A stretch of DNA of 64,000 nt from an uncultured Omnitrophica bacterium (GTDB lineage: Bacteria; Omnitrophota; Gorgyraeia; JACQQV01). How positions within the stretch are numbered: position 1 is the stretch's first letter; each line of letters opens with the position of its first letter. A program made the translations under genes and the position numbers. Where the stretch lies: the NCBI GenBank assembly GCA_947085655.1, contig CAMTXH010000014.1, forward strand, positions 9,825-73,824, in the 5' to 3' direction. Of this stretch, positions 1-31,200 are shown one piece after another. The notes below the pieces were generated by a model. That model was not told where the DNA came from. It was given only the letters and a program-made list of their open reading frames with translations, and searched no databases.

Positions 1-58
1 GGCCGAGTTGCCGAAGAGTCTAGGCAATTCGGCCATTTTTATTGGAGGAGGTTTTAAG

Positions 59-835: not shown

Positions 836-1681
836 ATGAAGAAACTGGGCCTCGCGATTTGTTCGATTTTTGTTTTGTCCGGCATCGGCCAGGCAGAACC
901 GGTTGATCCGATGGACATGCGTGAACTTCAGATCAATATTCAACCGCTCATCAAGGCGGTTCAGATCAAGCCGGTGACGCTTCCGAAAATCTACGGGATA
1001 GACCCCCGGATCCAGCAGCTTTTCAACAGTCTCGTTGCGAAGGGGATGGAGAAGTATCGGGAAGCCGAACCCGGCGTGTATGCGGACGAAAAAGTCTATT
1101 ACGATGAGCAAGGCCGCGTCAGCCGGATCGTCCGGTATGAAAGGGTTAAAAACAAGGACCAATCCGGAGGCAGGCGGTGGATTTACACCGATTTTGTTTA
1201 TGACGAAGCCGGAAACGTCATCGGATACGATCAGACAATTATCGAAAAAGGCTGGCTCCCGGACCCGGAGACGGGGAAACTGGTTTACCATGACAATAGG
1301 GTCACGAAAATTTCTGTGCGCTATGATCCAATCAAGCCCGGGGCGGGAATTCCAGGACAGGGTGCTGCGGGGAACGAAAAAGATGCCAAGGCGGATAGAG
1401 GGGTCGGACAAAACGAAGGATTGAGACCTCTTTGTTCTGGTGATCCTTCACTTTGCGGGGAGTATTTGGAGTGGCAGGCGATGTACCCAGAATTGGATCC
1501 AATGGAATTTTGGATGCACCACATCAGGTTCCCTGATCGGGAAATAACACCGGTCTCGGTAGAACGATTGCCTCTTCCGGGGGATGTAACCCGGAATCGG
1601 ACCAAAACGCTTCCTACCGAGGAAGAGCGGGAGCGGAGGCAGTCGATGTCGTCCCAAGATCCGCTTTTCCGGTTGAGATGA
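836..1681 (+). CDS. Small secreted YD-repeat protein
   Basis: ATG at 836 is 8 nt after GGAGG. Signal peptide MKKLGLAICSIFVLSGIGQA. YD/RHS-type repeat motifs are present (YYDEQGRVSRIVRYE, FVYDEAGNVIGYDQT, LVYHDNRVTKISVRYDP). C-terminal LPTEEERERR motif. Confidence 0.65.
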   Translation: MKKLGLAICSIFVLSGIGQAEPVDPMDMRELQINIQPLIKAVQIKPVTLPKIYGIDPRIQQLFNSLVAKGMEKYREAEPGVYADEKVYYDEQGRVSRIVRYERVKNKDQSGGRRWIYTDFVYDEAGNVIGYDQTIIEKGWLPDPETGKLVYHDNRVTKISVRYDPIKPGAGIPGQGAAGNEKDAKADRGVGQNEGLRPLCSGDPSLCGEYLEWQAMYPELDPMEFWMHHIRFPDREITPVSVERLPLPGDVTRNRTKTLPTEEERERRQSMSSQDPLFRLR

Positions 1682-4030: not shown

Positions 4031-4051
4031 GCGCTGTCAGGAGGCATCTTG

Positions 4052-6766: not shown

Positions 6767-6767
6767 A

Positions 6768-9700
6768 ATGAAGAACAATCTTCTTGATCATAACCTGGAT
6801 GTCGCACGAATAGAGGAGCGGGACACCTCTATCCAGAAGTGGCAAACCCCTCGGTTGAAGCCGATTCTGGGGGCTTTGGCGCTTGTGGTTGCGGAGCTCT
6901 TTTTCGTGACACAGGTCGCCTGGGCCCTGGACTTGAATCATATCAATGCCTTCAAACGGCAGTTCCGGCAGCGGACCCTTGAGATGCAACGGATGATGCT
7001 TCCGCAACAGATGGATCGGAAACGGCAGGAACAGCAGGCGGCCCTTGACCGGAAAAACCTTGTGATTGAGAACTTCGGCAACACCGACTCCTCCTTCTTG
7101 GCGCTTGCGGATGTGGAAAGTCAGCCGCTCACGGAAGATTCGGTTCCGCGGCCGGTCTACCGGCTGGGGGAGGAGGAAAAGGATGACCGCAAGGTCATTC
7201 AACTCGCCCGCGGTCCCTTGGTCGGCGTTGAAGTCCTTGGGCGGACGACGGACGAGGCGGGTTTTGGCCATGTGACCTTACGAACCGAGGACGGCGCTCT
7301 GAAAGATGCCACCATCGGCTCTTCCTTATTTACGAAAGTGCCCGCCAAAGAGAAAAAACCGGTTGCGCCGGGAACCTATCTTGCCGAGGGCCTTGCCGGA
7401 GGAGCAGGTCTCCTTGAAGCGAGGGAGACTTTGGGCGGAGAACTGATTACGAGTCTTTCCCCCATCCTTCATATGAGGGAAGAGACACCCGAAAAAGCTT
7501 CCTTGCGCGAAACCATTCAAAGGCAAACCCAAGTTGCCGAATCAGAAACCGTTTTACCCGAAACTTCCAGTACCCTTCCGGTTGATATTGACACATTCAA
7601 AGACGAATACGGGCAGATTCCGGTGATCGATGCCCGGACCGGCAAGGCGAAGACCAGTTTTGAAAAATACATCGACAGTCTCTCCGAACTCTTCCATGCG
7701 GCAGGCCGCGCCGCCCTCAAGGCATTCCTCGAGGAGGCGGAGGAACTGGAGAATATCGAAAGGACCGATCCTGAAGCGGCGCGGATCGCCAAGGCCCACC
7801 TCACAGGAAAACGCGAACGGGACGGCCAAGAGCCACCGAACCCCGGCCAGCAGGATACCCCGAGAGACAGATTCCAATTCTCCAGTTCGGGCAACGCCCA
7901 GTTTGACGCCTTTCTCCAGAATCTGACGGAAGAAATGGAGAGGCGTCTTGCGGAAGGCCCGGAGACGACCAAAGATTCCTACACGTATGTGGCGAAAGAG
8001 GTCGGAGTTAAGTTTGATGCGGACGGGAATGTGGTCTCGACCTATACCCGTTATGTGAAAAAGACCTTCACCCTCCACCGCGGAGAACTCCGACTCATCG
8101 GACGGACCACCACAACCAATTATGAGAATGCGGACGGCACCACCGGCACCAAGGTGGAGATGGCCAAGTTCGGCTATGATGACCGGGGCCGGCTGGTGAC
8201 GCGGGATATTGAAATTCTCCTGAACGGCTTTGTCTACGACGAAGACCTGGAGAGAGTGACCGGACCATTTAACAATTTCCGGATGACGCTCCACCAGCAA
8301 GCGATTCGGGATGAGGAAGGCCAGATCGTTAAATTCATCTCTGTCTCCACGGTCGGGGACATCGAAAACCGCTACGTCCTTGAAATCGAAGAGCGCGACA
8401 CCGCCTACCAGAAGACCCGGTGGAAAGAAACCACCACCGTCACGAATCTCCGGACCGGAGAGGTCCGTACCACCGAGACCGAAGGACACGCCACCGGCTT
8501 TGACGACCAGGGCCGCGCCACCGGCTTTGAAATCAACGAACATGTCTTCGGCGGTCAGGATGATTACTTCCGGACGATCACGATCGAAGGGATCGTTTAC
8601 GGCAGAGACAACGAATGGGTGTCCTTCCGGCGGACCATTGAAACGGATGGCTTTGTCGGATTGCCGGACGGCGGCGGGGAGATGGTGCATCGGCGGGAGG
8701 TTTATGATCATTGGGTGGATTCCGAGACGGGTGACGCGATGATCACCACGAGAGTGTATGAAAACGGCGTATTGATTGACACCACCACTTACCGTCAGAG
8801 TGAGATGCCCGAATATATGGCCCTTTACCTGGACGGCCGCTTTGTCGCCCTGGCTCCTCTTCTTGGGATCAATTTCGAAACCTTTGTCAACGGCACTCTG
8901 GATGCCCAGAACTTCCTGACCGCCATGGGCATCAGCATGCCGCTTGAGACGCTGCTGGGTCTTACCGGAGACAGCGAGCTTGCGGCCGCTTTTGCCCAGA
9001 TGGACCCGGATGCAGTGGATGCGCTGGTCGCCGGTGCGTTGATGGCGCTTCTCTTTGAGGTGGTTAAGACTTACGCCGAGAATGTGGGACAGGATATCGC
9101 GGATGAGGAAGCGGAGAATCGGAGGACAAAGGTTATCAATAACTTTGTCGACAGGATGCCGGATCACCTCAAAGCGGCGGCACGTCAAATTGCCGAAAAC
9201 CTCTTTGACAATCTTGCAGACGTTCTGGCCGATATTCAGCAGGATCCTGCCAAGATGGATGCCCTGATCGGCCGCTTAAGGGATGCCGGTTTGACGGGCA
9301 ATCTCTCCAAGGTCGAACTCCGCTCGATGGGTTATACCGAAACGGTGATGTCCAGCACAAGCGACATCATCGAAAGGCGGACCGTTATCTTCGAATATGA
9401 CGAGGAAGGACGCATCTCCCAATCCCTTGAAAGGGTCCACCGCTTCGGGAGGGACAATGACGGAAAGGTCATTGACCAGACCTACAGCATCGAGCGCTCC
9501 GATTACCGCTACAGCGAAAACGGGGTCCTGATCGGCTATCGCGAAACCCTCATCGGCGTGAATGAAAACGGCGAAGTGACCCCCGGATTGAAAGTCGAAC
9601 GGGATGTCACGCCGGAATACGGCCCGGATGGCCGGCTCATCCGGATGACCTCGGTCAATACCTACAGCATCACCGATGAAAGAAGGGCGGAAGTCCAGGC

Positions 9701-12700
9701 CGGGATCGATGCCATTGACAGACGGGTCGCCGAAATCAAAGCGAAACTAAAAGGGAAAGTCGGTTATAAGGAACTCATCAAACTCCGGAACGAACTGAAG
9801 GTATTAGAAGAGCGGAAAAAGAGACTGGCAGCCGAGCGGGATGCCGAGCCCTTTACCCGGAAAACGGTTCAGGACCGGTTTGAATATGACGAGCAGGGGA
9901 ATGTGATCGGATACCGGCAGATCACGCGCGATGCGGAAGGGAACGTCGTCGATCATAACGAAGTCTCCGGCATCTATATCCATCCGGTCACCCAAAATGT
10001 GGTGAGGCAGATCCGGACCACCTATGTCCGGGACGGGGTGACGCTGGAAAAACCGGAGGTCCGGACCGAGTACAACAAACAGTACGACATGCGAGGCCGG
10101 CTCATCCGTCAGACGATTGAGCAGGATGGGAAAACGTTCGTCGAAGCATTCAAATATAATCGCCTCGATCAACTGATCTGGAGCCGGAATCAGCAGGGAA
10201 TCACCTCCAATTATACCTATAACCGAAGCGGCCAGGTGACCGGCTATGAGATGCACTTCTTTGAAGGGGAGACGAAATACGTCAAAGTTTACAATATCCG
10301 CTATGACGGATTCGGCCGGAAAGTCGGCGAAACCCGCCGGGCCTATATAGAAAATAAAGATGTGAAGGGCTGGCAGACAACCACCGTCACCTATGGGTAC
10401 GACCAACTCGGCCGGATTGCCTGGGAAGAGACCCACAGCGTCTTCAAGGGCAACACAAAGAAAGGTGACCACAAGGTCACCATCAAGGAGGGGTGGCGGA
10501 CCACCTACACCTACGGGCCCAACGGACAGGAAAAGCGCGAAAGGAGACTCTATTATGACCAGGAGATAAAACGGGGCTTCTGGGCGAATGTAGTCCACAA
10601 TCTCTTCGGCGGGTTTGTCTTTGATGCGATCGCAGAAATCTTCGAAGCGTTCGGGTGGGAGAAGGGCGCCAACTTTGTCCGTCAGATTACCCCGATTCTT
10701 CAGATGGTCGGCATTATGATCGCTGCCATACTCGCCGCGCCCTTCTCCGGAGGCCAGTCGCTCACCTTCGGCATGATGCTTGGGAACGCCCTTTTTGTGG
10801 CGGCCGTGACCGGTGCAGCCGCCTTCATGATGAATGTGGCAAACGGCATGTCCGTGAAAGATGCCCTTATCGCCTTTGCGAAGGGGCTTGCCCTCGCCGT
10901 TGTCACCGCGGGCCTCATGCAGGGGCTTGAAGCATTTGCCAGCGTCATCGATTCCATAGCGAGACTCGGGTGGGACATCTTGACCACGATTCCGAAACTG
11001 ATCGGCATCGCCCTGAAATTTGTGAAGGATGTCGGCACAAAGATTTATGATGCGCTGAATACCGCCTATACAAAGACTCTCCGGAAATTCATCGAGAAAT
11101 TCGGCGGAACCGCAGGGGCGACCGGTGGAATGATCACCCTTTCAACCGCCGGAAAGATTATGCAGGATGTGGTCCGGCAACTTGTGACCGCCGCCTTCAT
11201 GCAGATTAAGTTGCTCCGGGATTCCGACACCGCCAAGCTCCTCACCCTCTTCGCCCTCGGCGCCTACTTCGGAAATGTGGTGAATAGTTTCATCCTCCCG
11301 ATCGGACAGGAGATGATCCAGGGGAACAATCCGGAGGATATGGGTTATGCGGTCTATGCGCTTTATGCCTTTAACGTCGGGCTTCAGGCCTCTGGAGGCG
11401 ACTTCCTGAATCTTTTCCGGAATGCGGCGGGTGAACTGTCCGCTGTTGTCAGTAAAGGGGCCTTTATCGCGCAGTCGCTCTATCAGGCCCTTCAGGACCA
11501 GCTCCTTGCGGAACTCGGCGAAGCGCTCAAGCCGGATGTGATCCTCAAGACGGATGATTACGGAAACGTTCTTGAAAAGAAAAAAGGCGACCTTTCTCTC
11601 GGGGACAACATCTTAATTTCGATCGCCCGTTCCCTGACCGGCTACGAGATGTTCACCGCCATCCGCCACTTCACCTTCGGCAAGGGCCCCTTGATTGAAA
11701 AACAGGCGACCCCCGGCGGAAAATACCAGACTCTTCAATTCAATACCTTCGGCGATTTCCTGAAAGGCCGCGCCTCCCACATCGCCTTCTGGAGCGGCTT
11801 GCCGGATCCGGCGGATCCGAAAAAACTCATCTTCGGCTCCCAGCAGATGGCGATCAGCCGGCTGGGCGGTCAGACCCAAATTCAATACTTCAACAGCCTC
11901 TTTGAGGGGGGCGCAAAACCGTTCCGGACCGATCTCCTCAATCCGGGCGGCAAGTCCACCATTTCCCTTCATACGTATAAGCCGGACGGGACACAAGTCA
12001 CATACCGGACTGATTTCTTCCAAAACAATAAACCGGTTGCGACGGAACTTTATAGCGAAGATCACACCGTCCGGATCAACCACCTGGATAACACGGTGAC
12101 CGTTGTCGGACGCGGCGTCATACCGATACCGATTTACCCGATTTTCCCGTTTGTCCAATTCACATTCCCTCAGGCCATTGCCAATACCCAGCTGGACGGT
12201 CCCTTCCTGAGGATTCAGGGGAAGAACGGGGATATCGCGACGTATGACTTGAATAAAGTTATGGAGGGATGGGGGGAGAACATCGTTCCTCTGACAACGG
12301 CCACGTTTGACAAAAAAGGACAACCGACCTTTACCTATCATCCGGAAGGGCTTTCAGAAAGGACCTTTTCCTCCGAGGCCTTCCGGAATCAGCTTCCTGA
12401 AGCCCTCCGGGACGTGGAAATCACCAGGGACCGGCTCGATATCCGCTTCGGCACGCAGGTTTATGTTTATGCGGATAACGAGAAGAGCAAACTTCTCTTC
12501 ATCCACGACCTTGCTTCGGGATGGACGCTGGTGGAGGGACGGGAGAAAAACGATGTTGATCTCTATGTGAGTGCCGCAGGTGGGCCAAAGTCGGTCCGTC
12601 AATCCCTGCCGGAACTGTTCAAGCATATTGAACTGAATCTTAAAAATATCCAGATGCAGCAGACCGCCGCAGGACCGCTTCTGACTATTTTTGACGCTGT

Positions 12701-15700
12701 CAAGGGACAGGGAATCCTCTCGCTGGATCTGGAGGGAGGGGAACTGGCCGTCTCCTTCATCCATCCGCAGGGCCTTGAGATCGCCCTCGGTAACCAGACG
12801 GGGCAGGTCCTGCATGAGTGGAACGCGGCGCATCCTGAAAACCAAATTGATCCGAACCGCTTGGATGCGAATGCGGCAAAGAATCTCTTCAGTTTCTTCA
12901 GCGAAAAACTGAGCCAGCTCCAAAATCCGGATATGGATATGGCGGAGCGGGAGGTGCGGGTCAACCAGATCCGGCCGCTGGTTCAACTGCTCATTGCCAG
13001 GATGGGTGAGTTGGAAGGGCTTCTCGGAAGCGATGAGATCCAGACTCTGAAGAATAGCATAACCACCTTCTATCAAATTGCCATTCAGGTTGTGGAATAT
13101 AAGATAAGTGCCGTCCAAAAGACCATTTCAATCTTGAAGGAAAATGCAACCGGCCCCGGGGCTGCGGATTATCAGAACCATCTCCAAAAACTGGAAACTC
13201 AATTGGTTCAGGCGACAAATGCACTGACCCATTTGGAGGACTCCATCGATCAAAACCATTTTGATGCGGCGGATGTATTCCTTTCAAACGCGATGAACCT
13301 TCCGAGTCTTCTGACCCTACGGAGTGAAGCGGCGGGACTTCTTTACAAGCAGGGCGGGATCCAAGAGGGTAGAGTCAATGCCCTCAAGACCCTTTTGAAA
13401 CTCTATGAAGCCGAATTGAAAGAGGCGAGGAGCACAGCCGCTCCGGATACGACACGGATCGAGGATTTAACCAAGGCGATCTCTTACCTTAATTCCGCCA
13501 TCAACACCGGCCTGATCAGTCCTGAACTGCAGAATATTCTTTTGACTCCCCAGCGGAGAGTCCGGCTTCTTTTGTCACAGGCCCTTCCGGAACTGCTGAG
13601 GACCCAGGCGGCAGGAGGAGATATTACGAAACTAAAAGCAGACCTCCTTGCGAAGGCGGAAGAAATCAGTCCGGCATTCAGGGAGAGACTGGAAAACGTC
13701 ATTCGTATTTCTGCCGGCATCACCAGTCCGGAAATGGAGAAACTTTCTTCCGAAGCCCGGGCTGAAAGGGTTGTAAACATTACCCGGACCGAACTCATTC
13801 CGGCGGTGTTGGAGTTGAACCGATTCCTCGAGACGCAGGGGTATCTTTTGTATGCGGTGCCGTCTGCGGACGGCCGCAGGGTGGAAAGCCGTGTTCTGGA
13901 TATCAATGAAATCCGCCGGTACAAAATCACCCTCAACGGGAAAACGCATGAATTCCGCGTCTTCTTTGTGACCTATCCGGGGGCCGACTCGGGTGTTCCC
14001 GGCGGCGCCCTCCATGATCTTGAGACCCGGCTCAGCCATTACGGATACAGCATGGGGGATTACAATGTGGTTCTCCAGGATAACCTTGGCCGGTTTGTGG
14101 AAGTGATCAACGACTCAACCTTCAGGGATGTGGAAGGGCAGCGCCTTGAGGGCTTGGTCGCGGGCCAAGCACTGACCGTGGCAGGGTATCAGGTCATTGC
14201 AAACCTCACTGCAGACCACGAAGTGGGTCATGCGGTCGAGCGGCTACTCGGACATATTGATCCAACGGATGCCCCGGCACAGGAGACAGCCGCCTACTTC
14301 CGGGAATTGGCCGGCGCCGAAACATTCCAAGAGGCATGGGGATCGCTTAAGGATCTCTGGGGGATGGCCAAACATGGTCCGGAAGGGGCGCCTCATACGA
14401 TTGCCGCCCGAAACGTCTTACGCGCACTTTATACACGGCTGGCTCAAAAGGAGGGGGGAGACTTTAATGACCTCTCAACCCATCCGAAATTCCAAAGGGT
14501 CCTGATGCGCCTTGCGGAGGCGAACCTTGACGGATTCCGGTCTCTTATCGGAGAAGGGTACGAGGCCCACTTTGGCAGGGCATTGGTCCAGCCGGAACTT
14601 GAAGAGGGCTCTACCATCCCGAACCGGCCGGTCAGTCTTGAGGCGGTTGGGCTTGCGCTGAACACAGCGGACGACACCTTCATCACAAGGGCCGAAAGCG
14701 CCTACAACCGGCTCGGGGCATTTACCGACGACATTATTACTGCAATCAACAATAACGATTTGGATGCGGCCAAAGGGCTTCTCCAGTCCTCTGGGGCGTT
14801 TGTTACCGACATAACCGCCTTCTTCAACGAGGTCAGCTCGGTGATGGACGCGCTGAGTCATGTTCCCTCCAGCATCTTCGGAGAGCAGATGTCTCCGGAA
14901 GAAACGGCAAATCTGAGCCGGACCCTTCGTCAACTCGGGGATATTGTTGCCGAAGAGGAACTGACGCTTTCGCAAGCCCAGCGCAGCCCAACGCTCCGGA
15001 TGACGGATAGCGATTCTATTCCTGTGGCCGCGGTGGTGAACGCTGTGAATGCGGCAGAGGTGATCCATGAAGATGACACCATCACGAAACCGGGTAGTGT
15101 CAAAACAGCCGACGGCACATCGGTTAACTATAACGAGCACCGGCACCTTCAAATCCAGAATAACGACACCCAGACCCTCACAACGATTGACCGTTACTTC
15201 CAAGGGGAGAAACTTGTCTACCTTCAAGTGAGCGTCAAGGATCTGGTCACCGGCCGGATCACGAATTTCGCCTATACCGGAACGATGGAGTTGAACAAAT
15301 CGGGCGGGCTTAACCTGATTGATGCAAAAGTGTTCAGGACCTACACGACCCTCGCGACCCTGAACGGCGTCCGGCAAGAAGTTCTCATCGAAGAGATTTC
15401 CATTATAAAGGATAACGAACTCATCAGCTCGAATCAGGTCCTGAAGAGTCTCGAAGGGATTCCCCTTGGGACTTTGGATCCGCAAGAGCTCCAGAATCAA
15501 TTGAACGGAGTGGATGCCTCCGGAGCCGCTCTCCGGTTTACCGCGTTGGATGACCCGAAGAATCTCGGGGAGATCGAGGGCCTTAGGGGAAGAGAGAAAC
15601 TCCTGACACTTTATGAAGTGACCCGGACGGTTGAGACAGAGGAAGGGCCAAAGACAGAGACCTTCCATGTCCTTGCCAATGATGATTTCTCCGAGCAGTT

Positions 15701-18700
15701 CAGGGTGGAGATCACGCGTCAAGGGGATGCGATTCAGATTACCAAGGTCATTTATGATTCTGTCGTCGATCCCCTGACCGGCAATATCACTGTTCCGTTT
15801 GAGGTTCTTGAAAACGGAAAATTTGTGAGCGACCGGTTTGAATATGCAAGACTCTCCGATCCGAAGAACCTTGCATCGGCCGAACTCAAACTGAAGGCGG
15901 AAGGGTTCCTTGAAGTGAGCGGCCTTCATCTCTATAAACTCACCCGGATTCATGGAACGCAGCAGGTGGGGGAGGCCTCCTATGTCCTTGCAACTCAGGA
16001 CCTCTCGGAACAATACGGTATCCGGCTCGGCAAAAATGGACAGATTAAGAGTATCCAAGTCCAGTTTAAGACGGAAGGCAATAATAAGAAAGTCACTTCC
16101 CTTGACTTTGAAAACGGCGAATTTGTCGTTACAGAAAGATTCTTCGGACGGAAGAGTGCCGCAAATCTCTCCTCGGCTCAAAAAATCCCGCTTTTGGCAG
16201 GGTTCCATCTCTATGAGGTGACAGAGACGGTCAAATTGGCGAATGGGAGTATTCGCCGCGGAGAAACCTCCATGGTCATGGCGAACGACGATCTCTCCGA
16301 TATTTACGGCGTCACGATGGAAGGGAGACAAATCGAAGCGATTCATATCTCCTTCGAGCGCCATGCCGAGGGCGCCACCTCCCGCTCCTTCATCTTTGAC
16401 AAGGGACGCTTTGAAGATACGATCAGCAAATACACACTGTCAGATTTGGCCGTGGAGAAACTCCCCGAAGCGATTGCCGCCTTGAAAGCGGCCGAAGGTC
16501 TCAAGATCGAAGGGAAACTTTCACTCTATCTCCTTGAGCAGACGGTGGACGGCAAAAAAGAGGCACCGGCATTTGTGCTGGTGAACGATCAGTTTACGCA
16601 GCAGTTCGGTGTCTCGCTGAATGAAGAAAGGACCCGGGTGATCGGGGGTCAAATCTCCTTTGATCGGAAGACCCTGACCGGGCGCGCCCTCGTCCTCAAC
16701 GAAAAAACCGGCCAATTCGATGATGTCATCAGCCATTACACAAAACTTGATTTGGTGCTCGGGAATCTGCCGGAGGCGGAAAGACGGCTCGGTGTCGGAG
16801 CGCTTACCGTCTACAAACTCAACCGGATCGTGAACGGGGTGGAAGAGGATCCTTCCTATGTTTTGATCAATAGCGACTTCAACAGACAATACTCGGTAGA
16901 GTTGAACGAAACCCAGACAGAGATTACCAGGATCCCGCTCGGTTCCAAAAAGGATCCCAAGACCGGAAATATCATTGTGACCTCCCTGGATGTCATCAAC
17001 GGCGAATTCCACGACGTGGAGACGCATCATCTCAATACACTGTTTAACCGGAGGGATTTGGAAGTCTACCGCTCCAGAATGAGGGAAGCGGGATATTCGC
17101 CCGAGGACTTCACCCTTTACGAGGTGGTCAAATATATTGATGGCAAACGTCAGCCGCAATCACCGACTCAGCACAGTGCCGCCCTTCTTCCGGCCCACGT
17201 TCCGACTATTCCTCTCGCCAATCTCTTTGAAGCGGACGGCCGCCAGTTTATTCTTCTGAGCAACGACTTCAACAAACAGTACGGCGTGAACTTTAGGAGC
17301 GGAAAAATCGAATCACTCAATTTCCGGACCGAAGGGGAAAACGGCGCTTTTACCATTACCACCTGGACGCCGAATAAGAAAGGCGGCATTGACGAACATT
17401 TGGATCTCTACGCACCGGTCTTCTTTGATGAATCGAGTCTTGGTGTATTCAGGGATCGGAATGTGATCGGAAGCGACCAGCACACCCTCTACAAAGTCAT
17501 TCAGAAACTGAATGGTGCCGTCCAGGCAGATTTCCATCTTCTGGTGAATGAGGACTTCAGCAAGCAGTTTGTGGCAACCCTTGAAGGGGACAGAATCACG
17601 AGTCTCATGCTCCGGACAGAGGATACGGACACCTTTAAACTCACCACCTTCACATTGTCCGGCAATGAAATTATCGAAACCTCTGCTATTTTCAACAAAA
17701 AAACTGGCGAACTGATCCGGGTCGAAAGCCCCTACGCCGAACGGCTCCAGACGCTTGAATCGCTTGTCGCGCAGCGGGACTACCTGAACGCCCTGATTCT
17801 TTATCTGACCGCCTCCTCGGATGCGCGGGATACACCGGGGCAGGACGGGCGGGATGCGCAGGTCGTTCTCCATCGGCAGGAGTTGGCAAGGATCGAAATC
17901 CAAATTGCCGAGGCGCAGGATCTGGTGGCGGCGGATCTTCTGGAATCGCTGAAGGCGCAAGGGTATGACACAACCCGGCTCACCCGCGAGAATGTCGTCT
18001 TTGTCAATAATGACAGATCACCGAAACTGACTGTCGATATTACATCTGAAAAGGAGGTCGGCGGGCGGAATCAGGTCATCAAAATCGAACCGAACGCCAT
18101 CTTTGGAATTGATGCGCAGACCGGAGGATATGCGGTCCACACAGGCGTTCTCCGGGTCGGGAATCTCAAACTGGCCTACCGGGACTTTAATCCGGAAATA
18201 CCGGCGCCACAGGATGATCAGAAACCGCAGGCCGGCGAAATGGTCTCAACCGGCATCACCCAGGTCGAGTTAGATGTGGATGAAAATAATAACTACTGGG
18301 TGACCGGAAGGATTGAAGTAAAGGACTTTGCCCGGCTTTTGGTGGTCCCCGGCTCGCGGATCGCTCTGCTCGGCAATCAGCAAGCAATCATTCTTGGAGA
18401 TACTTTTGACCCAGCCACCTCCGAAATCGGCCGGGTGATTGTGATTGAATTTGACAGCCGCCTCGGCGAAGACGGGAAAACGCCTATCGGCGCGGTGGCA
18501 CGGGATATTACGGGAGAGGTCCTTGCCGCACAAGAGACATTCCGGCAGAAGCGGACGATGCCGCAACGCTATAGCGCCGGATTCGATGGTATGGTGGATG
18601 ACGAAAGAGCCGCGGCTCCCAGATTTGACAGTGACGTTGCCCCTAATTTCGACATTGTCCCTTCCGACGCGGGGACAGGAAGAGAACTCAACACCGCCCG

Positions 18701-21700
18701 CGAGTTGGTCAATGCCAATATAGGAGGCGACACCGTAAGAGCGATGCCGGTCCTGGATGCCTCGATCGGGCGGATTTTCGTTCAGGCGATGAAGGTTGTT
18801 TGGGGGAATGTTGTCATCCGGCTTGGAAAGGAGTTCCATAATAGAGGGTGGATCGAGTCAGGCGAGGCACTCGCCAGGGAAGGACAGATGAACCAGGCGG
18901 TTCTTGGCGGGCCGTGGAAACAGGCATTGGCAAAGCCCGGCATTCTCCCGGCCATTACCTCTTTCCTCAGCGGATTTGCCTTCTTTGCACTCGCCATGCC
19001 GCAGTTTATCGCTGAATTTGTGGGCAAGCCCTGGGAGCTCATCAAGAAAACACTCGATCCCAACTCACCCGATTTTATCCTGACTTCGATGGCGAGAACT
19101 TTTGCGCAGGATCTGAAGACGAATGTCTGGTTCGGGCTCGGTGAACTGGCGGTCTTCGGCGCTTCGTTTGCCGTCGGCGGTTTCCTAAAGGGTGCGGGCC
19201 TGTTCCGGGTGATGAAGCAGGCAGCAAAGGCCCACAATAGACCTGCTTTGGCGGCGAGGGCGCTTGGTGAATCGATCACTGCAGGCGTTTCATACGGTAT
19301 CCGTTCGGCTCTCATGCTTCCGGTGCACCTGGTGACCTTCCCGATTACAATGACGCTTGGCATCATCGGAAAAGGATTACAGTTTGCCGGCGTCATGCGG
19401 CTTGGGAAGCTATTCAACGCATTGGGCGGCAATGCCCTCCGTTCTTACCTTGCTAACTTTTCCCTGAATCATCCGATTGCCTTTGTCAGAGCAAACGGCT
19501 TCTTTGGAAATGTTTCCGCTTTCATGAACCAGTTCCGCTTTGCCGATGCAAGCCCCGAGCGGCTTCTGGAGAGTCAGGCCGAGGCGTATCTCTTGCAAAA
19601 GACCGCGGCGGAGATGCTGAAGGGGGGCAATAATTGGATTCAGAAGAAAAGTTTGCAGCTTGCCCTTCAGCACTTCACCAAACAGTTGGGCCGGATCGAT
19701 ACGGCGATTTTGCAACTGGCAGGACAAAGAGGCGAACTTGACAGACTCATCGATCTTGGTTCCGGCAGGGGGAATGAACTCTTCGGTCAGCGGATCTCCA
19801 ATCTTGAACCGCTTGCCAACCTGATGCAGAGGGCCGCCAACTTTTATTTCGGAGAGCTTCTAAGGACGGCAGGACACGCCGAATCCGTCTCTGTCTTTGG
19901 TGAACTCCTTCAAAGAGGGATGATGCCGGAGACGATCCGGGAAGCAGTCCTCGACGCCCTGAATGGCGGAGGCGCGGGCCCGAGAAGAATCGCCGGCATT
20001 GAAATTGTGAATACCAGTGTGCTTCGCGGCATCTTAAACCTTGCACAGAAATTTAACAATACGCTCCGGCTTCCGGAACGGGTCCAGCAACTCGCCTTTG
20101 ACCAGTTTGTCTATGAAATGGTCCGGACGATGCCCGGTTACAGCCCGCAGGATATTCGAACCATCATTGACGGGGAGGGAAAACCGATCGATCTTCTCCT
20201 TCCGGGCGGCGATGCAAACTATAGCAGAGTCTACCGGACTGTCCGGCTTTCCAACGGCCAAGAAGTCGAGGTAACCCCGGTCCGTTTGGCCGCGGCAAGA
20301 AGGATTTATGAAGTACAGGGTGAGCGGGCGGCGAATCTTCTTTTTGAAGGGCTCTTTAGAGGGCTCCGGAATCCGGCTGAAATCCTGAACCGGTTGAATG
20401 CTCTCGGAAAAATCATCTTTGACCCGGCCAATTACGGAAAGACGTTAAGGGAAATTCTTCCGGCTGAATTGATGCCGCGGCTTCTCCGTGGGTCGCCCCT
20501 TGCCGACTATCGGCTGACGCCTCAGAGCCATTTGTTTAAACTCCTCCATACCAAACTGGAGAGCTACAATAGCCGTTTTGGCAATAAACCCTCTTTGTTC
20601 AACCTTGGAAATCCCTATCGGGACTTCTGGAAACCGGTGACCTCCACCAGCAGCGGAAAAAGCGCCCCCGGTGAATATGGAGGCACCCCGGAGCAGGTCC
20701 GGACACAGTTCGAAAGCCAGATGAATGCGGCCGAGAATCATCGGGCGAAGGCCAAGGAGTGGGCGAAAGCAAATGGCGTTCCCGAATCCCAAGCAGAGGC
20801 CAAATGGCTCCGGTCGGAACTGAAGCGGGTGAAACTGACCGGAAGAGAAATCCGGCACGCGGTCCGGCAGTATCGTCAAAATCCGGCCGGGTTACAAGAA
20901 TTCCTGAACGGACTTCGAAGGACCGAGCTTTTGACACCGGATGGCCGCGTTAATCCCGAAGGGCTCAGGAATCATGCGCTGGCGGAAGTCGTCGATCTCC
21001 TTGTCAATGTCTATCCCGATTTTAAACTTGACCGGAGGGGCTCCGGTGACCAACTCACCTTCCTTTATTTAATTACAGAGCGTGATTTCCTCCGGTTAAA
21101 CGGAGAAAGCGTTCCGACAGCCCTTCTCCAGTTGGTCCAAGGAGGCGGAAAAACACTCGGTGTCTTAATCGGAAAAGAGGCCGCTTACTCGCTTCATCTC
21201 AAACAGAAACCGAACGCCTCCTTCCATGACCTGATTGTGACCTCCAGGGATCAGTTGGCTTTCCAGTATTTCAAGGAAGGATCCCTTGAACGGAGGGTCA
21301 TTGACCATATGCGCGATACACTCGGAGTCGAGATCCGGAATGTCTCCTCCAAAGAAGTCCAAAACGTGGAGAACATCGGACCGGTCGGTCCCCGGAGTCT
21401 CCTCGTTATGGATAACTATAACTTCAAACGGCTGAGCATGAGTCTCACAAAACTCTACCAGGAGAAGGAAGCGCTTCAGCCGAAGCTCCTTGCCAAGGAG
21501 AAGGAGATTGAGATAGCCGGACAAGACCTTCGGGCAACAGAGGCACAATACCGGGCGAACACGGGACGGAATATCCCCTCCCTTTTGGATGCGGCTTCCG
21601 AGTTGGGTACAGCGAGGAGGACGGTGGTCGGCAGACAAGCAGACTGGTACCAGATTGCAACCCGGCTAAAGGAAGTGGAAGCCAAGATCGAAGATCATTA

Positions 21701-24700
21701 CCTTGCAAAAGTCAAAAAAGAAGGTGGCACCCTTTTTGACGAGATTCAGGAGGCACTTGCCGACTCGGACCTTATTGAAGGGCCGGGGGGCGCTCTCCTT
21801 GAAACTCAAGACCCGACGAAAATCGAGGGCATCCGGGCGGATATCCGGGGCCGGATCAAAACCTTCCAAGCGCTTCAGGAGGAATTCTTAAGGACGGATA
21901 ATCCTTACGATGCGATTGAAAATGTCCTTCATGGCCAGAGGCGCGTGCGGGGCCAGTACCAGTTTAGAGCCGAGGTGGTCCAAAGGGTCTCTGAGCGGTT
22001 GAAACACGATCCGGATGTTGCCTCACTCGGCGAGCGGGGGAGGGGAAGCGAGTTTGAGCAATTTGCCGATGCGACGGCCAATGCCCTCATGTACCGGGAG
22101 GGAACCGATTACTTTATCAGAGCAAGGGGCGAGGCCCTTCGGTATTCCACAGGGCGCTTCGGCGTCAACCAACTGGAGACGGTCTTCGGAAACCGGGAGC
22201 TTGGCACAGCGGTCCTCATCAAAGAATACCTGAATCCCGAAAGAAACTTTGTCCGTGCCGGCGAGAGTGTCAATGCCATGGCAAGACGCTTCACGACAAA
22301 CGAAAGCATTCTCAACAGCATTGCCGATAGCTATCTCCACCATGAATTCAACCGGACCACCACCTTGAATGCCCTTGCCTTGGTCGGGCTTGAAAAGACG
22401 ACCTTTGTGACCGGAACAAGCAAAGGGATCCGGCATACCCTTAAGAAAATCGGTGCTTTAGTCTACGCAATCCAGAAGGAATCGCCGATTAAGTATCAGG
22501 AGAATTTGGAGCATGTCTTGGAAGTGCCTGTAGCCAATGAAGGCGACTCGATCAAGGAAGCAGTCAAGCAGGTGAGAAAGGCGCTTGCTGCAAATGCAAA
22601 AGGGGTCAAGATCGTGATTACAGGCGCGGATGGCGCACTTCTTGCGCAGATTCGTGAGGCACTCATCAAGGCAGGCCTCGGCGAACAGCTTCATATTACA
22701 AGAATCCGCGGACAGAAAGGAAGCGCCCATATTACCACAGCGCTTGATGCGGTCCGGAAGCGGTTTGAAAGTCATCCTGACCAGAATCACCTCATCTTGG
22801 TTCCCGATTTTGGCGCCGGGTCCAACCTCTTTGCTTTCATTGAGAATGTTCTCACGGGGGAAAAGATGCCCGGATCTCTCAAGCCGACCATCATTGAAAT
22901 GGGTCTCCGGGGCGAAACCCACCGGCAGCAGCTGGGCGCCCGGATGAACGGCGTTATCAGAGCCGATGTCCAGGGACGTGAAACCGGACGCTTCATCACC
23001 ATTATTAATGAACAGGGCCGGGAGCTGACCGATACCGAGCGGGTAACGCTTGGCCGCATCACCGACCCGGCCAAGCGGGAAGCTTTCTGGAGAGACACCT
23101 CCCGGAGAATGGACCGGGAGATTGATACCCAGAATGTGGTCCGGGTGGTCCAGGTCTCCCTCACGCATGCGGAGAGACGTCTGGTTGAGCACCGGATTTA
23201 CGACCGGGTGGTCAAGGGAGCGCTCGAACGGTCCAAGCGGAGAGCGGAAGTTTCGTTTGAAGAGGCGGTTAAAAATATCACCCAATTTAGAGAAGCACTT
23301 GAAAAACTCGGCATCCCTGTCCTGCTTATCCCGGACGTGGTGAACGCCATTCAAGGGTTCCGGCTCGGGAATCATCGCCTTCTGGACGAGGACGGGAACT
23401 TTACAAAAGAGGGGACCGCATTCCTTCGGCTCATGGATGACCTGATTCAGTTCGATGCTTCGCATGAACTGAAGGAGGACGCTCTTGCGCTCATCGCCAG
23501 CGCAAAGGTCTCTGTGGTCGACAAGCTCCGACAATTGAATGGGGCGGCAGCGACCCTTAGAGAGGCACCGGAGAAATATGCGGCGGATGTGGCCTTTATC
23601 GCTTTAGGGTGGATGGAATATGCGAATTCCTCGGATCCCTTTATGATGGACCCGTTGAGTTTTGCCGGGGCGCGGAATGCTTTCCGGGAGACCTTCAACG
23701 AGGCACTTCTTGCGGTACTCGAGGTTCTTCCGGATGCGATGGCCGAGGATCTGACAGATGAAGAATTCAATGTTCTCTTCGAGGAACTGGTCACCAAGAT
23801 CAAAGAGGTACAGAAGAGCCATAAGGATGTCCCTGCCTTCATGCTGACAGAGAAATTTACTGAACTGGTCCTTGCCCGGATTGACCGCGCCTTGGCAGGG
23901 AATACCTTATCCCCGATCGAGCGGGAGCGTGCGGAACACCTCAAGGGGGCCATTACCGAGCTTTCCGGAAGTCTGATGAAAACGGTGGATGGCAAAGAGG
24001 AGCCGAAAAGTTTTGAAGAGTTTATGTTCACCATGATGCAGATTGCGGCGAAACCGGAATATCCGGAAGTCTCCGCACTCGACCTTTTAAGCGCCATGCA
24101 GCCCTTGATGAGCCACAGCAAACGGGAACAGGCCGGGCATGCGATGGATGCCCTCGGACAGGTGGTGAAGGTCGGCCGGCTCGAAGAACTCGGACTTAAG
24201 GAAGCGGTCCTTGCAAAAATCAGGGAATCCACGAGAGGCGAAAAGATTGATACGGTAGCGGTGCTTCAAAGAGGGCTCACAACGAACGTTCTTGCCGGAC
24301 GGAATTTCCTTCTTGTTTCGCATCGGCCCACCCTGACCGGGAACGGGATGGTCTATCAGTTTGGCACGAGTCCCCTTCAGTACCGGGAGGAAGACGATCG
24401 GCTTATCCTGACAGGGGATAGCCGGGGAACGCGCACGCCAACCGGTGAGCTGGTCAAGGAACCGCCTGTCAAGAAAGTCGCTGTGAGGGAGATTGAGGAT
24501 GAAAAAGTACGGGCTGCCCTCGCGGCTCGCGGCCTTGGGGAAGACGGCGCCGTCCGAGTGGTGAATTACGAAAAAGGCCTCCTCACGGAAACGTATTACC
24601 TTGCTCCGGAGGCGGATCGCATCCTCCATGCAGCGGTGGATATTCCTCTTTATACCGAAGACCTTGCAAGGAGTCTTGGGTTCCTCTTCCCGGGTGCAGG

Positions 24701-27700
24701 AGCACTCAAGAAGGGCGACCGGCTCCTGGTGCATAATTATTACAAAGAAGGAGAAAATCTGGTCCAAAGCGCTGTTTTCGCAAGGGACTCCCTGGGTGGT
24801 GAAAGAAAAATCGGACAGGTTCGGGTTGAGCAGATGCCCTTGAGAGAGTTCAGATTCAGCACCGTACCGGGCCGGGAGAGTCTCTACAGAAGACTCCTCC
24901 GTCACGGCGTTCATTCGGACCAGACGGTGGCGATCCGGACTTTCCAGGATCATCTCGGCAATGATCTGAGCGATGTGGGCGGGGAGAAAATCCTGCATGT
25001 GAGCGCCATTCAAGCGGGCAATGCCGCCCTTCCGACGACGGCGCGCCATCTCTTCGGCAGAGCCGTGACAAGCCAGGTCTCCACCGAAGAGCGGAAGCCC
25101 GGACTCCTTGTGATGGAACTTGACTTCATGCAGAAGGACTCGATTGACATGCGGAACGACTCGCCCACCGGAGAAGTCGAGAATTTTGAAAGTCAGGTCA
25201 GCATCAACTATCATCCCGGGCTGATGGACGCCTTTGAAAACCGGTTCGGATTCGACCCGGAGAGCAGCCATACCGTTGCAGGCGTTGACAAGAAACTCTA
25301 TCTATTCCTCTCCCTCTTTTACCGGATGAATATCCACGAGTTCCGCGGACACCTACGGTTTGAGAGCCCCGTCCTGAAAGAGGCAGTGGCAAAAGAACTG
25401 GGTCTTACATCACGCATCCTGACGGAGGATCTCCTGAAAGAAATTTTGGCAAAGAAGGATCAACTCGGAATCACGGTGGTTCCATCCGAAGCGCGTCCCG
25501 GCATCTTGGAAATCCGGCTTCGAAACGGGGATGTTTTGGTCGGGTTGGATGATTCCAACAACATTGCGACGCTCGGCACGGAATTGACGGATGCAAACGG
25601 GCGCTTCAGCGGATTCAAGCATTTTGACAGCCACGGCTCCTACAAGATTCAGACCAGCGAGCGGATCGCGGAGACTCTGAGCGGCGCGCATTACCGGGCG
25701 ACCGATCATGCGGCCCGCTTCATGTGGTTCTTCGGTCTGAAGCAGGAGCAGCACAGCGCTGACCGGATTGACCAGAATATCGAGGAGATGGTCCATCGGT
25801 ACGGTGCGCGCGAGGCGGATGATTATCTCTCTCTTATTCATGATCCGGTATTGAAGGAAGATGTGAAGCATGTGACCAAGCGCTTCAGCGAGGGCCACTT
25901 CAAATCACTTGATGAACAGAGAACACACCGCCTGGCGCGCTACTACGGGGTTGAGCCGGAGCGTTCCCTGACGCCTCCTGAGCCGCCCAAGACCCGCCTT
26001 GAGAGCGGACATTCCATCCTGGATATTCCGGCGATGGTTCCGATGATCATGTCGATCGGTCAGGGTCTGATGGTCGTGGACCGGGGAACCTACGATAGGA
26101 TCAAAGGCGATTATGAAATAGAGAAACTGGCCGATCCGAACTCGCCGTTTGTGCGGGTGATGTCCCTTTTCTTTGAAACAGACACGATTGATTTGGGCAA
26201 CCTTCAGAGTGCGGTTGAAGCGCGGCTTAGCCGACTCGGAGAGCTTTCCATTGCGGATCGTCGCGCCCTCTCCGAACGGCTGACTTCACTCTACCAGGTC
26301 ATTGAAGGGGCCCGGCTCCTTGCCTCCGCCTTCCGGTCCGGTCCAACCGCTGAGCGGGATGCCTTGGTCTATGAAGTGGGGCAGGCCCTTGAAGCGCTTA
26401 TCCGGCAGGTTGCGCACATTGAGGTGGGTGAGGGGATGTTGTTTGAGACAAGATCGTTACTTTCCGCCCTCCGGACCTTTGCGCTCATCTTTAGGGATGA
26501 CAAGGCGTTTGGGCAGGCGTTTAACCGGATGGCCTTCTTCTTCGACAAACAGGGCGGACGGCTCCTGAATGACAGGGAGCTTTCGGCACTCATCCGGAGC
26601 CGCGGAAAGAATATCTTCGACGGAGGCGCATTCCCGATCGAGAAATTCGTTACGTTCTATAATGAAATGTTGAGCCGGGGCATCAAACCGAACGAGGCGG
26701 AACAGGCAGTTTTAAGCATCCTCACGCTGAAAGACCTCATCGACCGGGATCTTAAGACGGGTCGTTACTTTGTCAAACACCCGGAGAATCCCGGCTCCAT
26801 TGCCGCATTCGACCGGAGCAAATCAAGCGATGAATCCTCGTTCATCCTCGCTGTGCATGAAATCATTCATACGTTCCAGCATACCCATAAGCCGCTCATG
26901 GATGCGTTGAGGAACTACCACCGATCGCTTGCCAATCGGACAGTGACGGTTCAGGGGAAAGCCATGAACGGTCTTGAGGTTGTGAAGATGGTCCTGAGCG
27001 CCAACGGAGAATATAAAACCAGCGATCCGGAACTTATCGTGAGAGAATTCCACGCCCACTTCCGCGAGCCGCGGCAGTTCCTCGGGAAGTTGCAGGGCAA
27101 GCTTGACCAGAATGCCCGTCGCTTTATCGAAGAGATCCGGTTAGAGCTGAGACAGCTGGAAGCGCCGTTCCTTGCGGAGGTGCTGGGTGTTGCAGGAGAA
27201 GAGGCGGCAGCGGCTGTTCGGGATGCAGGGGTCAAAATCACGAATTTTGAGTCGATGCAGCATACGGGCGGCCAGGAACTCAAGACACTTCCGCTTCTTC
27301 CGGGTGCACCGCCAAAACCGTCGATTCCGATGTCGTTCAATTTGCCTAAGATCAACATAGGCCTTGAGGTCATTCCGGTGGATGAGGATAATGACGACCA
27401 GTTTGTGTTCGATGGCAATGTCGTTCAACTCGCATCAGTCCGTTCTGCCAAACGGGCCTTTGCTCAGGAAGGACCGGTGGCGACGGAGCAACCGACGCGG
27501 ACGCGGTGGGTGGAGGAGGCAGAGGCGAAAACCGCTCAGGCAAAACCGGTTCAACTGAGCGAGATGCGGCCCAAACAGGAAGCGGTCCCGCCTGAGATGC
27601 GCGAATGGTTCGTCGTCGGTGAGATTGCCAGAAAAAGCGGCGGCATTCCGGCCGAGGGACGGAAAACCATCCAGAAAATCCTCCGGGCGAATCCCGAGGC

Positions 27701-28256: not shown

Positions 28257-31200
28257 GTGAAAAATTCAGAAGAAAAAAGTCCAGAAATCAAGGGACGATT
28301 TCCATCTTGGTTTAGACCTCTTGCCTTCATTGTGGTCGAAACCTTTTTATGGACGACTCTCTCTTTTGATATTGCACTCGCCTTTGAACATCACGCCGCC
28401 GTTCATCTCCGCCCGAAGGCCTCCACACTGAAAGACGGCGGAGTGAAGGGACTCCGGGAAGCGCTCCGCGGAGAGGAACTTTTGGACTTGCCTGCCGAAC
28501 CCTCGGTCGCTGAGGACGGTGCCCGAAAAGGAAAGCCGTTCCGGGGAAAATATCCGACCCTCCACTTCCTGCACCGACCCAGCGAAACCGGCGGTCTTGA
28601 ACTGTCCGGTTTCGAAACGGACATCATGAAGATGGCCATTGCACCGAGCGCCGGCTCCAATGAAGGCCTGTCATTGAGCAATGAAGAGGCCGCCGCCTTC
28701 TTCCGCTTTGCGAGAGCGGTCGGTTTTGAAGACCTCATGATGATTCAAAATATGAATGACCGGCTTAACCGGGTACCGGAAGGAGACCGGAGGCGGCTTC
28801 TTCAGGGTGCTGTTCCAAGTCTCAAGAAAAAAGTCGTTCCTGTTCTTCCCTACGTTCTCAATCCCTTCGATGAGGGACTCGCCGAAATTTTATTGAGCGG
28901 AACAGAAGAGTTGAATTATTCCCTCCAGAGCCGCTTGAGCGGCGCGTTTGCCAAGGCAAGCGAAGTCAAGGGAACACCGGTAGAAAAATTAGCCCATCTT
29001 AGAAATGAGCTTTTGGAAGAAGGGGACCCCTCCAAAGCAAGGCTGCTGCGCATCCTCGAATTGATCGCAGAGCTCCAGACACCGGAGGCCAAACGGAAGG
29101 CCATCGTGGCCTTCACCGCACGGTATCTTTTCTCCGTGGAGAATAGCTTGCAGCTTGTGAAAATTTTTGGGCTTGCGGAAAGGGGATCGGAGACCGCTTC
29201 GGACGGCGCCAGAAAAACCATTGAGGGGGGCTATCCTTCGTTTGAGTACATGCATCAGCACTTCAGCCCGGCCGAACTTGCCCTTGTCCGCTTTATGATG
29301 CATCCGGATGCGGCGTTTGACCTGCAGGGTCGACTGAGCGTTCCGGAAATCCTCTTCTTTTTCAAAGCACTCCATGCGGTCGGTTTTGAGAATCTCCTTC
29401 TGATTCAAAACGTGGAGAAGGAACTTGAACAAACGGCTTTGCAGAAGAAAGAAATCCAAGAAGCGATTCATGGACTTCAGGCAAAAATTCCCCCTTTGCT
29501 TGAAAAAGTCACCTTTTCAGGCAAAGCGACAATCGGTTTAAGCAGTATCTTGGCGACCAGAACCGAAACGCTGGACGATGGCGTGAAACATCGCCTCCAA
29601 AAGGTCCTCGGGATGATTCAGAGGGCCAACGACCGATTTGCGGTTCAGACCGTGGACGATCTTCGCGAAGGTAAGATGCGCCTTCCGGATTCCAAGCCGA
29701 ATCAGCGGCTTATCGCGATTCTCCGTTTAATTGCCGACCTCCCGACCGTTCCTGAAAAAGAGAAAGCGGCCGTCGCTTTTGCCAAGCGCTTCCAATTGGA
29801 TGACCAAGATCTTTTTCACCTCCAAAGGGTTATGGGCGTCTCGCGAGTGATGTCCGGCCGGCTTCCGAACGAAGAGCAACTCAGAAAGGGGCTTAACCGT
29901 TACATCCGCCTTTTGATTCTTTCTGTTTTGAGAAAGGGATCCCCTGCGAAAGTGCTGGCGAAACCGACACTTCGCGATTCCCAATTCAGCGACGAGGAGA
30001 TCTCCCAATTTCTGGTGGAGGCCTATCAGCACCCTGACCGGCTTGTTGAAACGGCACGTCGTCAGTTTGAGGAAGCCCGGGCAGGACTTGTGCAAAGGAT
30101 TAGTCCAGAGGATCTGCGGGGATATGAACATGCGCTGCTTCAGATGGGTCCGGAGATTCGCGGCTTTTTGGAGCAGTATGCCTTGGTCTCTCCGGAAGGA
30201 ACAGAGGGAAGAGCCGCTGTTGCATCCCGTGACCGCCCGCCTGTTTCTCCTCTAGAACCGGAATCTCAAACTGCTGAAAGCAGCGGGCCGCTCAACGAGC
30301 TGTTGTCGGTCATCCGCGATCTTTTTGTCCAGGAGATCGGTTATCCGCTCCCGAATGACGCACTTGAACTTTTCCGAAGACCGCTGCAGAAAGGGCAAAT
30401 CACCCCGGATCAGATCATCTTTCAAATTACGGAATTGAGCGACCGGCTGACCGACAAAGAAAAAAGAGCCCATCAGGGAGACCGGATTTATTGGGTTCGG
30501 TTTGCAAAAGAGGCCATTGCCATCGAACCGATTACCCTGATCCAGCATGGAAAAACCCCCTCTCTCAAAGGGGTGCCCTATCAAAAAGAGCTTTATGAAT
30601 TGATGAATCGGGGTGCCATCACCAACACCCAGGCCTACTGGACCAAGGCGCTCATCCGGCATGCCGGCTTTGATCCGAAAAAGCTGGGCGCCGTCCTCCC
30701 GGCCGAAAATGGGAGCAGGCGGTTTGTGGACTTTGGAGCGCTTATCTCGGTTTTGGAGGCAGCGGGTAGCGGCAAATACACGGATGAGACAAAGGCGAAC
30801 ATTGTGTACGATTTCTTCCGGCATATTGCGACCCGGGAATCCAGAAAGGAACACTTTGAGGATCCGCGCACCCCCCTTCATTTATTCGGCGCACTCTATC
30901 CTTTTGTGGAATCCAACGTCCACGCATTTATTTACGAGGTGACGGAGGATATCACAAAAGGGGAAAAGCGTTTTCTCTATGACCCCGAAGGAAAACTCCT
31001 TCCTCCTGAAAAGACGGATGAGGTCGTTCAAAAAGTCTCCCGTTTGCTTGCCGGCAAAGGAAGAAAACTGAAGCGGGTGGATCAGTATCTGCTCGGGCGT
31101 GTCGTGAAAACTGTCCTCACAATGGACTACGAAAAGGGCCCCTCTGAGAGAACCCGCGACGGCGGCACCCGGCTGGCGAGTCGGGCGAGAGGACGCCTCA

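Follow-up and report, generated by a model that had tools for sequence, protein, structure and literature searches.

Giant proteins of Omnitrophota and other uncultured bacteria, including the 'Archaeovorins' and dockerin-type proteins (West-Roberts et al. 2023; Nielsen and Lui 2026), are very long, membrane-embedded, for the most part unannotated and encoded in tandem. We analysed a protein that is like them in these respects. It is encoded by a giant open reading frame (ORF), g1, in a stretch of 64,000 nucleotides (nt) from an uncultured Omnitrophica bacterium (contig CAMTXH010000014.1, positions 9,825 to 73,824, NCBI GenBank assembly GCA_947085655.1). We call this whole stretch the window. 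The g1 product contains two HExxH motifs, here called motif 1 and motif 2 in their order along the protein, and we asked what kind of site each might be. The peptidase modules described in other giant proteins are of the C39, S8 and M36 types and not of the family of motif 2 (West-Roberts et al. 2023; Nielsen and Lui 2026). None of the hallmark Pfam domains of those giant proteins was found in g1; a link to the cell wall lies next door, in the PG_binding_1 domain of a second giant ORF, g2.

The best described systems to which the two motifs can be compared are the gluzincins, which include thermolysin (M4), aminopeptidase N (M1) and the minigluzincins. According to a passage in PMC6414381 that quotes Cerdà-Costa and Gomis-Rüth, HExxH…ExxA is the pattern that assigns proteins to the gluzincin clan, with the Glu on a 'glutamate helix'. 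The same passage states that the residue three on from this Glu, most often Ala, forms a Ser/Gly turn (PMC6414381).

A further comparison concerns relatives of the motif-2 domain that are encoded as free-standing proteins near genes of type VI secretion systems (T6SS). We hypothesise that these are envelope hydrolases of T6SS clusters, and we liken them, by description only, to TagX and MltE. TagX is an M15-type L,D-endopeptidase and MltE a lytic transglycosylase; both remodel peptidoglycan and let the T6SS cross the wall. To our knowledge, neither has HExxH…ExxA.

Based on the analyses below, g1 probably carries two unrelated modules with a gluzincin signature. Motif 2 would most likely be the site of a zinc-dependent hydrolase, and motif 1 is a second, independent candidate.

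Results

Two HExxH motifs, each followed by ExxA

A regular-expression scan of g1 found exactly two HExxH motifs, bearing out the first-pass annotation of this DNA, which had reported two such motifs embedded in a protein of 7,085 amino acids (aa). The first, HEVGHAVERLLGH, starts at residue 2490 and the second, HEIIHTFQHTH, at residue 6703, 389 residues short of the C-terminus (Table 1; residue numbers are counted from the TTG codon at 6750). Of the positions given earlier, 26870 is correct as the last base of motif 2 and 14216 is one base early for motif 1. The placement of motif 1 after a membrane block was roughly right: the motif lies ~975 residues past the first of two hydrophobic blocks and ahead of the second. 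From the composition of g1, 0.21 HExxH motifs are expected by chance, and the Poisson probability of two or more is 0.019. By itself, the count is only mildly unusual and is weak evidence; the real evidence is conservation.

Neither motif is of the metzincin type, as had been recognised before. Counted from the second His, neither combines Gly at +3 with His or Asp at +6, and a Met-turn is absent. The earlier view that neither fits gluzincin spacing did not hold. An ExxA sequence, the gluzincin 'glutamate helix' motif, lies downstream of both, in the arrangements HExxH-x17-ETAA for motif 1 and HExxH-x58-EFHA for motif 2. The spacer at motif 1 is close to that of M1 and M4, which is x18-x19. 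In contrast, the spacer at motif 2 is long relative to gluzincins, also in typical members of its family (about x48).

The motif-2 domain belongs to an unannotated HExxH…ExxA family

We searched exhaustively with phmmer over 1.84 billion representative proteins, using the two motif regions concatenated as the query. Four proteins (P0003-P0006) matched g1 residues ~6547-6788 with E values of 7e-5 to 5e-4 (1.84 billion proteins). A profile of these four then recovered four more (P0007-P0010), and two conserved peptides recovered 278 relatives in GTDB species genomes, from which 80 loci were retained (L006-L085). At least 278 species genomes match the two short search patterns. A profile hidden Markov model of 88 homologues, with g1 excluded, matched g1 residues 6577-6777 with 48.7 bits and an E value of 5e-15. 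This value was computed among the six-frame ORFs of the window, where the next-best match had an E value of 3.2. On this basis we regard the homology of the motif-2 domain as solid.

Only 11 columns are invariant in the alignment of 89 sequences: R6593, F6636, E6651, H6703, E6704, H6707, L6749, Y6755, E6766, A6769 and F6792. Five of the 11 are the H, E and H of HExxH and the E and A of ExxA, and g1 keeps all 11. Eight homologues, 20-30% identical to g1, were found without HExxH patterns, and these residues are invariant in them too. The first-pass annotation had made its proposal depend on conservation of the His and Glu residues in homologues, and for motif 2 these are kept in 88 of 88. The conserved downstream Glu that it suggested looking for is E6766. 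The His cluster that it pointed to after motif 2 (TFQHTH) is not conserved and reads GEFFS, ARFFT or AWYFT in homologues.

These results bear on the notion that both motifs are chance matches without function, which we regard as highly improbable. The count of motifs is weak evidence (P = 0.019) and the structure models described below gave no fold evidence, but for motif 2 the presence of ExxA and an invariance that persists at 20-30% identity exclude this explanation in practice. From this conservation we infer metal binding and catalysis at motif 2.

The motif-2 domain is like gluzincins in having HExxH followed by ExxA with the Glu in a predicted helix. Many zincins have a Tyr, as motif 2 has the invariant Y6755, which may be a catalytic helper. 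In contrast to gluzincins, the family has an N-terminal half, with invariant R, F and E and a GHDY sequence, that is without known counterpart. Judged by its sequence, the g1 copy is a divergent member of the family. A 10-residue insertion follows its HExxH helix, and GGAF stands where the family has GHDY.

Single-sequence AF2 models of the two motif regions were poor, with mean predicted local distance difference test (pLDDT) scores of 40.2 and 42.5, and a Foldseek search of both against the PDB gave no match below an E value of 0.01. In the model of the motif-2 region, the stretch past HExxH alone was moderately confident (pLDDT 56-83 by 10-residue block), and E6766 lies in a predicted helix that follows the HExxH helix. 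The gluzincin features present at both sites are HExxH, in helices predicted by these low-confidence models, and a downstream Glu in ExxA/S.

Database annotation of g1 was nearly absent. Pfam had no matches across the full 7,085 residues and none for 450-aa segments around either motif, and PDB sequence searches had no match to g1. The sole NCBIfam match was a borderline YD_repeat_2x near the N-terminus (15.9 bits against a cut-off of 15.8). Neither motif region yielded a homologue in word-indexed searches, and a related-locus search of genome, metagenome and viral collections with g1 residues 2300-7091 was also empty, in collections whose GTDB representatives do not include the source MAG. 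A database protein, P0001, differs from the 7,085-aa g1 product at three residues; it is located on contig CAYJWX010000009.1 (NCBI GCA_964374045.1) and in two Logan assemblies. The suggestion that the motifs belong to unclassified families agrees with these searches, in which neither region matched Pfam, NCBIfam or PDB sequences. In sum, the two motifs resemble zincin-type sites of families not yet classified, one of them probable and one possible.

Free-standing relatives are found beside OmpA-domain and T6SS genes

A typical family member is ~330 aa long. A single N-terminal hydrophobic helix was found in 73 of 76 members, with basic residues on its N-terminal side in 67 of those 73, and a Pro-rich linker comes next. 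This pattern of helix and charge fits an N-in, C-out anchor in the inner membrane, with the domain in the periplasm. The free-standing members, from Acetobacteraceae and other Alphaproteobacteria, are thus probably anchored in the inner membrane and face the periplasm.

In the gene order around these members, an OmpA-domain gene (~205 aa) lies directly upstream on the same strand at 68 of the 77 loci that have more than 1 kb of upstream sequence. T6SS genes (TssA/B/C/E/F/G, Hcp, ImpE) lie within 8 kb at 52 of 80 loci, and are present at 45 of the 66 loci with more than 5 kb available upstream. The commonest order is TssC - ImpE - TssE - TssF - TssG - methyltransferase - OmpA-domain protein - HExxH protein. 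The OmpA-domain gene and the HExxH gene form a fixed pair that closes the 3' end of T6SS baseplate operons (e.g., L044 135-8981; L009 2345-9059). In a minority arrangement, the HExxH gene is divergent from TssA-TssB-TssC-Hcp-ImpE. A PpkA-like Ser/Thr kinase is encoded nearby at 37 loci and a TPR-CHAT protein at 23, and the two are often convergent downstream of the OmpA-HExxH pair.

The free-standing members are encoded after an OmpA-type peptidoglycan binder at the end of a T6SS operon, and this position suggests a family whose target is the cell envelope. A substrate in the envelope is likewise suggested by the partner, which binds peptidoglycan, together with a machine that has to cross the wall.

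We compared this OmpA-linked family (P0004, P0007-P0010, L006-L085) to g1. Its members are homologous to g1 residues 6577-6792 and have the 11 invariant residues in common with it. In contrast to the g1 domain, which is embedded in a giant protein, they are ~330 aa long and have one N-terminal membrane anchor, the Pro-rich linker, GHDY (98-99% of members) and OmpA or T6SS neighbours. The g1 domain is without GHDY, and no T6SS genes lie near g1. There were no OmpA or T6SS Pfam matches within the window. The domain also occurs in a longer protein, P0003 (1,568 aa), which has a signal peptide and carries HExxH…ExxA at residues ~720-960 (L087 1914-6620). Its gene is in a row of genes for 600-850-aa proteins without Pfam matches on a 35-kb contig of assembly GCA_024449895.1.

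None of 45 family members scanned singly, with E values up to 10, matched Pfam, NCBIfam or PDB sequences. Searching PDB sequences with the family profile gave chance matches only, which we rejected. We found no description in the literature of the signature peptides of the family or of T6SS/OmpA/HExxH accessory proteins.

It is possible that the modules are self-processing ('releasing') peptidases that cut the g1 precursor, as proposed in other giant proteins and in polymorphic toxins. We consider this unlikely. Motif 2 is immediately ahead of a C-terminal tail of ~290 aa, but the free-standing members, at ~330 aa, have nothing to release and sit beside an OmpA-type peptidoglycan binder in T6SS operons. 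Comparison with these homologues favours a role in trans at the envelope over processing of the giant protein.

It is also possible, and similarly doubtful, that the motif-2 domain binds a metal and is not proteolytic. It could be a hydrolase of another kind, for example an amidase with peptidoglycan or lipid as substrate, or it could serve Ser/Thr-kinase T6SS signalling as a sensor or regulatory domain. In favour of a non-proteolytic module, kinase and TPR-CHAT genes lie near many of the loci, peptidase families show no detectable similarity to the domain, and g1 is without GHDY. However, the Glu after the first His is invariant, and HExxH with ExxA is the gluzincin pattern. In zincin hydrolases (clan MA) the Glu after the first His is the general base, and a metal site with a structural role alone would have no need of it.

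Motif 1 has one known relative

For motif 1, the exhaustive phmmer search turned up a single relative. This is P0002, a fragment of 97 aa encoded on a groundwater contig of 551 bp (L086). A tblastn comparison of g1 to this contig gave 48% identity over 176 aa (E 6e-47). The best-conserved 15-mer of the alignment is around HExxH, with 12 of 15 residues identical compared to a mean of 48%. Past a divergent loop, similarity returns at AQE..YFREL; here the Glu of ExxA/S is kept and the Ala is replaced by Ser. Conservation of the His and Glu residues is therefore borne out weakly for motif 1, in one relative, and the same relative keeps the downstream Glu, E2512. The third His at +8, pointed out earlier, is Phe in this sole relative, which does not support it as a ligand.

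In the poor AF2 model of the motif-1 region, strands, a helix and two strands precede the HExxH helix, and the Glu helix with E2512 follows. This predicted secondary structure is compatible with a zincin N-terminal subdomain, and is not evidence for one.

We weighed the possibility that motif 1 is a chance HExxH in a conserved non-enzymatic domain, and that motif 2 alone is real. This is a serious alternative, if somewhat short of an even chance. With one relative at 48% identity, about half of the residues would be kept anyway; no support from a family, a fold or a profile was found; and 0.21 HExxH motifs are expected in a protein of this size. On the other hand, no 15-mer of the alignment is better conserved than the block around HExxH, and a Glu at the classic x17 distance, with ExxA/S, is kept past a divergent loop.

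One apparent second relative of motif 1 was rejected. The pattern TA[DW]HE[VL]GH had picked out L005, a metagenome locus. This match is an artefact: it is out of frame and lies opposite a gene for an ABC-transporter ATPase (E 6.7e-51). We also looked for a relationship between the two modules. None was detectable when the motif-1 alignment was compared to the motif-2 family with hhalign (P = 0.084), and BLASTP among the proteins of the window found no paralogue of either module.

Other regions of g1

The hydrophobic segments of g1 comprise an N-terminal anchor and two blocks of candidate membrane helices (Table 1). YDxxGR-like repeats are abundant in residues ~400-1290 (window ~7900-10600), in an N-terminal region that looks extracytoplasmic; Pfam was silent there. 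In the translation we saw ~8 tandem repeats of ~100 aa at residues ~2800-3650 (window ~15150-17700), with the pattern 'LYEVTRTV…VLANDDFSEQF'. BLASTP self-comparison at 1e-3 missed these repeats.

Past the second hydrophobic block there is a Walker-A-like GGGKT at residue 4798 (~21141-21155) and a possible Walker-B-like LFDEIQ at residue 4995 (~21732-21749). These two sequences hint at a helicase- or SecA-like ATPase, as reported in other giant proteins, without support from Pfam. If GGGKT belongs to a cytoplasmic ATPase, motif 1 would be on the outside and motif 2 on the inside. The sidedness of each module relative to the membrane is something that we infer only.

Neighbourhood of g1

Upstream of g1, a 905-aa ORF (4049-6766) overlaps the possible TTG start of g1, and the ATG at 6768 is directly past its stop codon. 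This abutting arrangement suggests translational coupling. Downstream, the 6,100-aa product of g2 has no HExxH motif. It has two modules in common with the next protein (1,389 aa, 46566-50735): an N-terminal one (residues 19-92 of g2 and 12-94 of the smaller protein, 33% identity) and a C-terminal one (residues 5902-6093 and 1198-1376, 41% identity, E 6e-29 by BLASTP). Beyond g2 are several large unannotated ORFs, then fused metabolic enzymes and proteins with carbohydrate-binding modules. No tRNA was found in the window.

There is no cysteine in the 17,684 residues encoded by five successive genes on the plus strand, from g1 to the end of an acyl-CoA dehydrogenase fusion (window 6750-60271). 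Cysteine makes up 0.4-1.1% of residues in the flanking ORFs at 836, 2015, 60295 and 62652.

Table 1. Features of g1 and of the genes that follow it, in window coordinates, with residues numbered from the TTG at 6750.
Feature	Window position	Residues of g1	Strand	Remark
Giant ORF g1	6768-28025 (ATG) or 6750-28025 (TTG)	7,085 aa (ATG) or 7,091 aa (TTG)	+	Holds both HExxH motifs; cysteine-free
N-terminal anchor		39-57	+	From hydropathy
Hydrophobic block 1	10686-11294	1313-1515	+	Kyte-Doolittle scan; 3-4 candidate membrane helices
Motif-1 domain core	13788-14309	2347-2520	+	Aligns with the only known relative, L086
HExxH no. 1, HEVGH	14217-14231	H2490, E2491, H2494	+	HELGH in L086
ETAA, candidate third zinc ligand	14283-14294	E2512-A2515	+	17 residues past H2494; EATS in L086
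Hydrophobic block 2	18942-19367	4065-4206	+	Kyte-Doolittle scan; 3 candidate membrane helices
Motif-2 domain	26478-27125	6577-6792 (~216 aa)	+	Member of the unannotated HExxH…ExxA family
N-terminal half of motif-2 domain	26526-26702	R6593, F6636, E6651	+	Contains these three invariant residues
GGAF	26622-26633		+	Replaces GHDY of 98-99% of family members; conserved His-Asp-Tyr lost in g1
HExxH no. 2, HEIIH	26856-26870	H6703, E6704, H6707	+	Invariant in 89/89 aligned sequences
Invariant Tyr between HExxH and ExxA	27012-27014	Y6755	+	88/88
EFHA, candidate third zinc ligand	27045-27056	E6766-A6769	+	E and A invariant, 88/88
Giant ORF g2	28257-46559		+	6,100 aa; one PG_binding_1 domain at about residues 1054-1127; cysteine-free
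ORF	46566-50735		+	1,389 aa; cysteine-free
ORF	50948-55915		+	DUF4954/LbH and amino-acid kinase; cysteine-free
ORF	55922-60271		+	Acyl-CoA dehydrogenase fusion; cysteine-free

Discussion

Our results indicate that the motif-2 domain of g1 is homologous to a family with 11 invariant residues, five of them in HExxH and ExxA. It is likely that motif 2 binds the metal and carries out catalysis in a hydrolase domain, and we lean slightly toward this hydrolase being, more specifically, a peptidase. For motif 1, it is close to an even call, with the balance just on the negative side, whether it is a real gluzincin-like site.

If both modules are hydrolase sites of the gluzincin type, a simple mechanism can be proposed. 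At motif 2, H6703, H6707 and E6766 would hold zinc, E6704 would act as the general base that activates water, and the intermediate may be stabilised by Y6755. At motif 1, H2490, E2491, H2494 and E2512 would make up a second site, one with the classic short spacer.

Several points weigh against this interpretation. Neither g1 nor any of the 45 family members scanned has Pfam, NCBIfam or PDB-sequence similarity to a peptidase, and both AF2 models are poor. Patterns containing HELSHG or NEMQAY served to retrieve most of the 80 genome loci, and the invariance of these loci at those sites is partly circular. By our composition-based estimate, an ExxA is expected by chance 15-70 residues past any HExxH about one time in three. 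GHDY is absent from g1, and the g1 copy could be impaired or altered. A cytoplasmic ATPase at residue ~4798 would put motif 2 of g1 in the cytoplasm, and the free-standing relatives are probably periplasmic. Motif 1 rests on a single relative at 48% identity, and the alignment to that relative is broken by two in-frame TAA codons (nt 167-169 and 491-493 of L086), which could reflect a pseudogene, sequencing errors or recoding.

One could picture the motif-2 domain as part of an unannotated family of gluzincin-like envelope enzymes. In Alphaproteobacteria such an enzyme would be a T6SS accessory, in the form of a small protein that is anchored in the membrane and paired with an OmpA-type peptidoglycan binder, and in uncultured groundwater bacteria it would have been recruited as a module into giant membrane proteins (g1, P0003), where together with the motif-1 module it might cut peptides of the envelope or of the prey surface. 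This broader picture is tentative, and we think it rather less than probable.

Almost nothing in giant bacterial proteins is annotated, and a conserved domain that looks catalytic is a first experimental handle on g1. The family of the motif-2 domain is sizeable and is absent from Pfam and NCBIfam. If its members are true metallopeptidases, they would represent both a new T6SS accessory enzyme and a new family of gluzincins.

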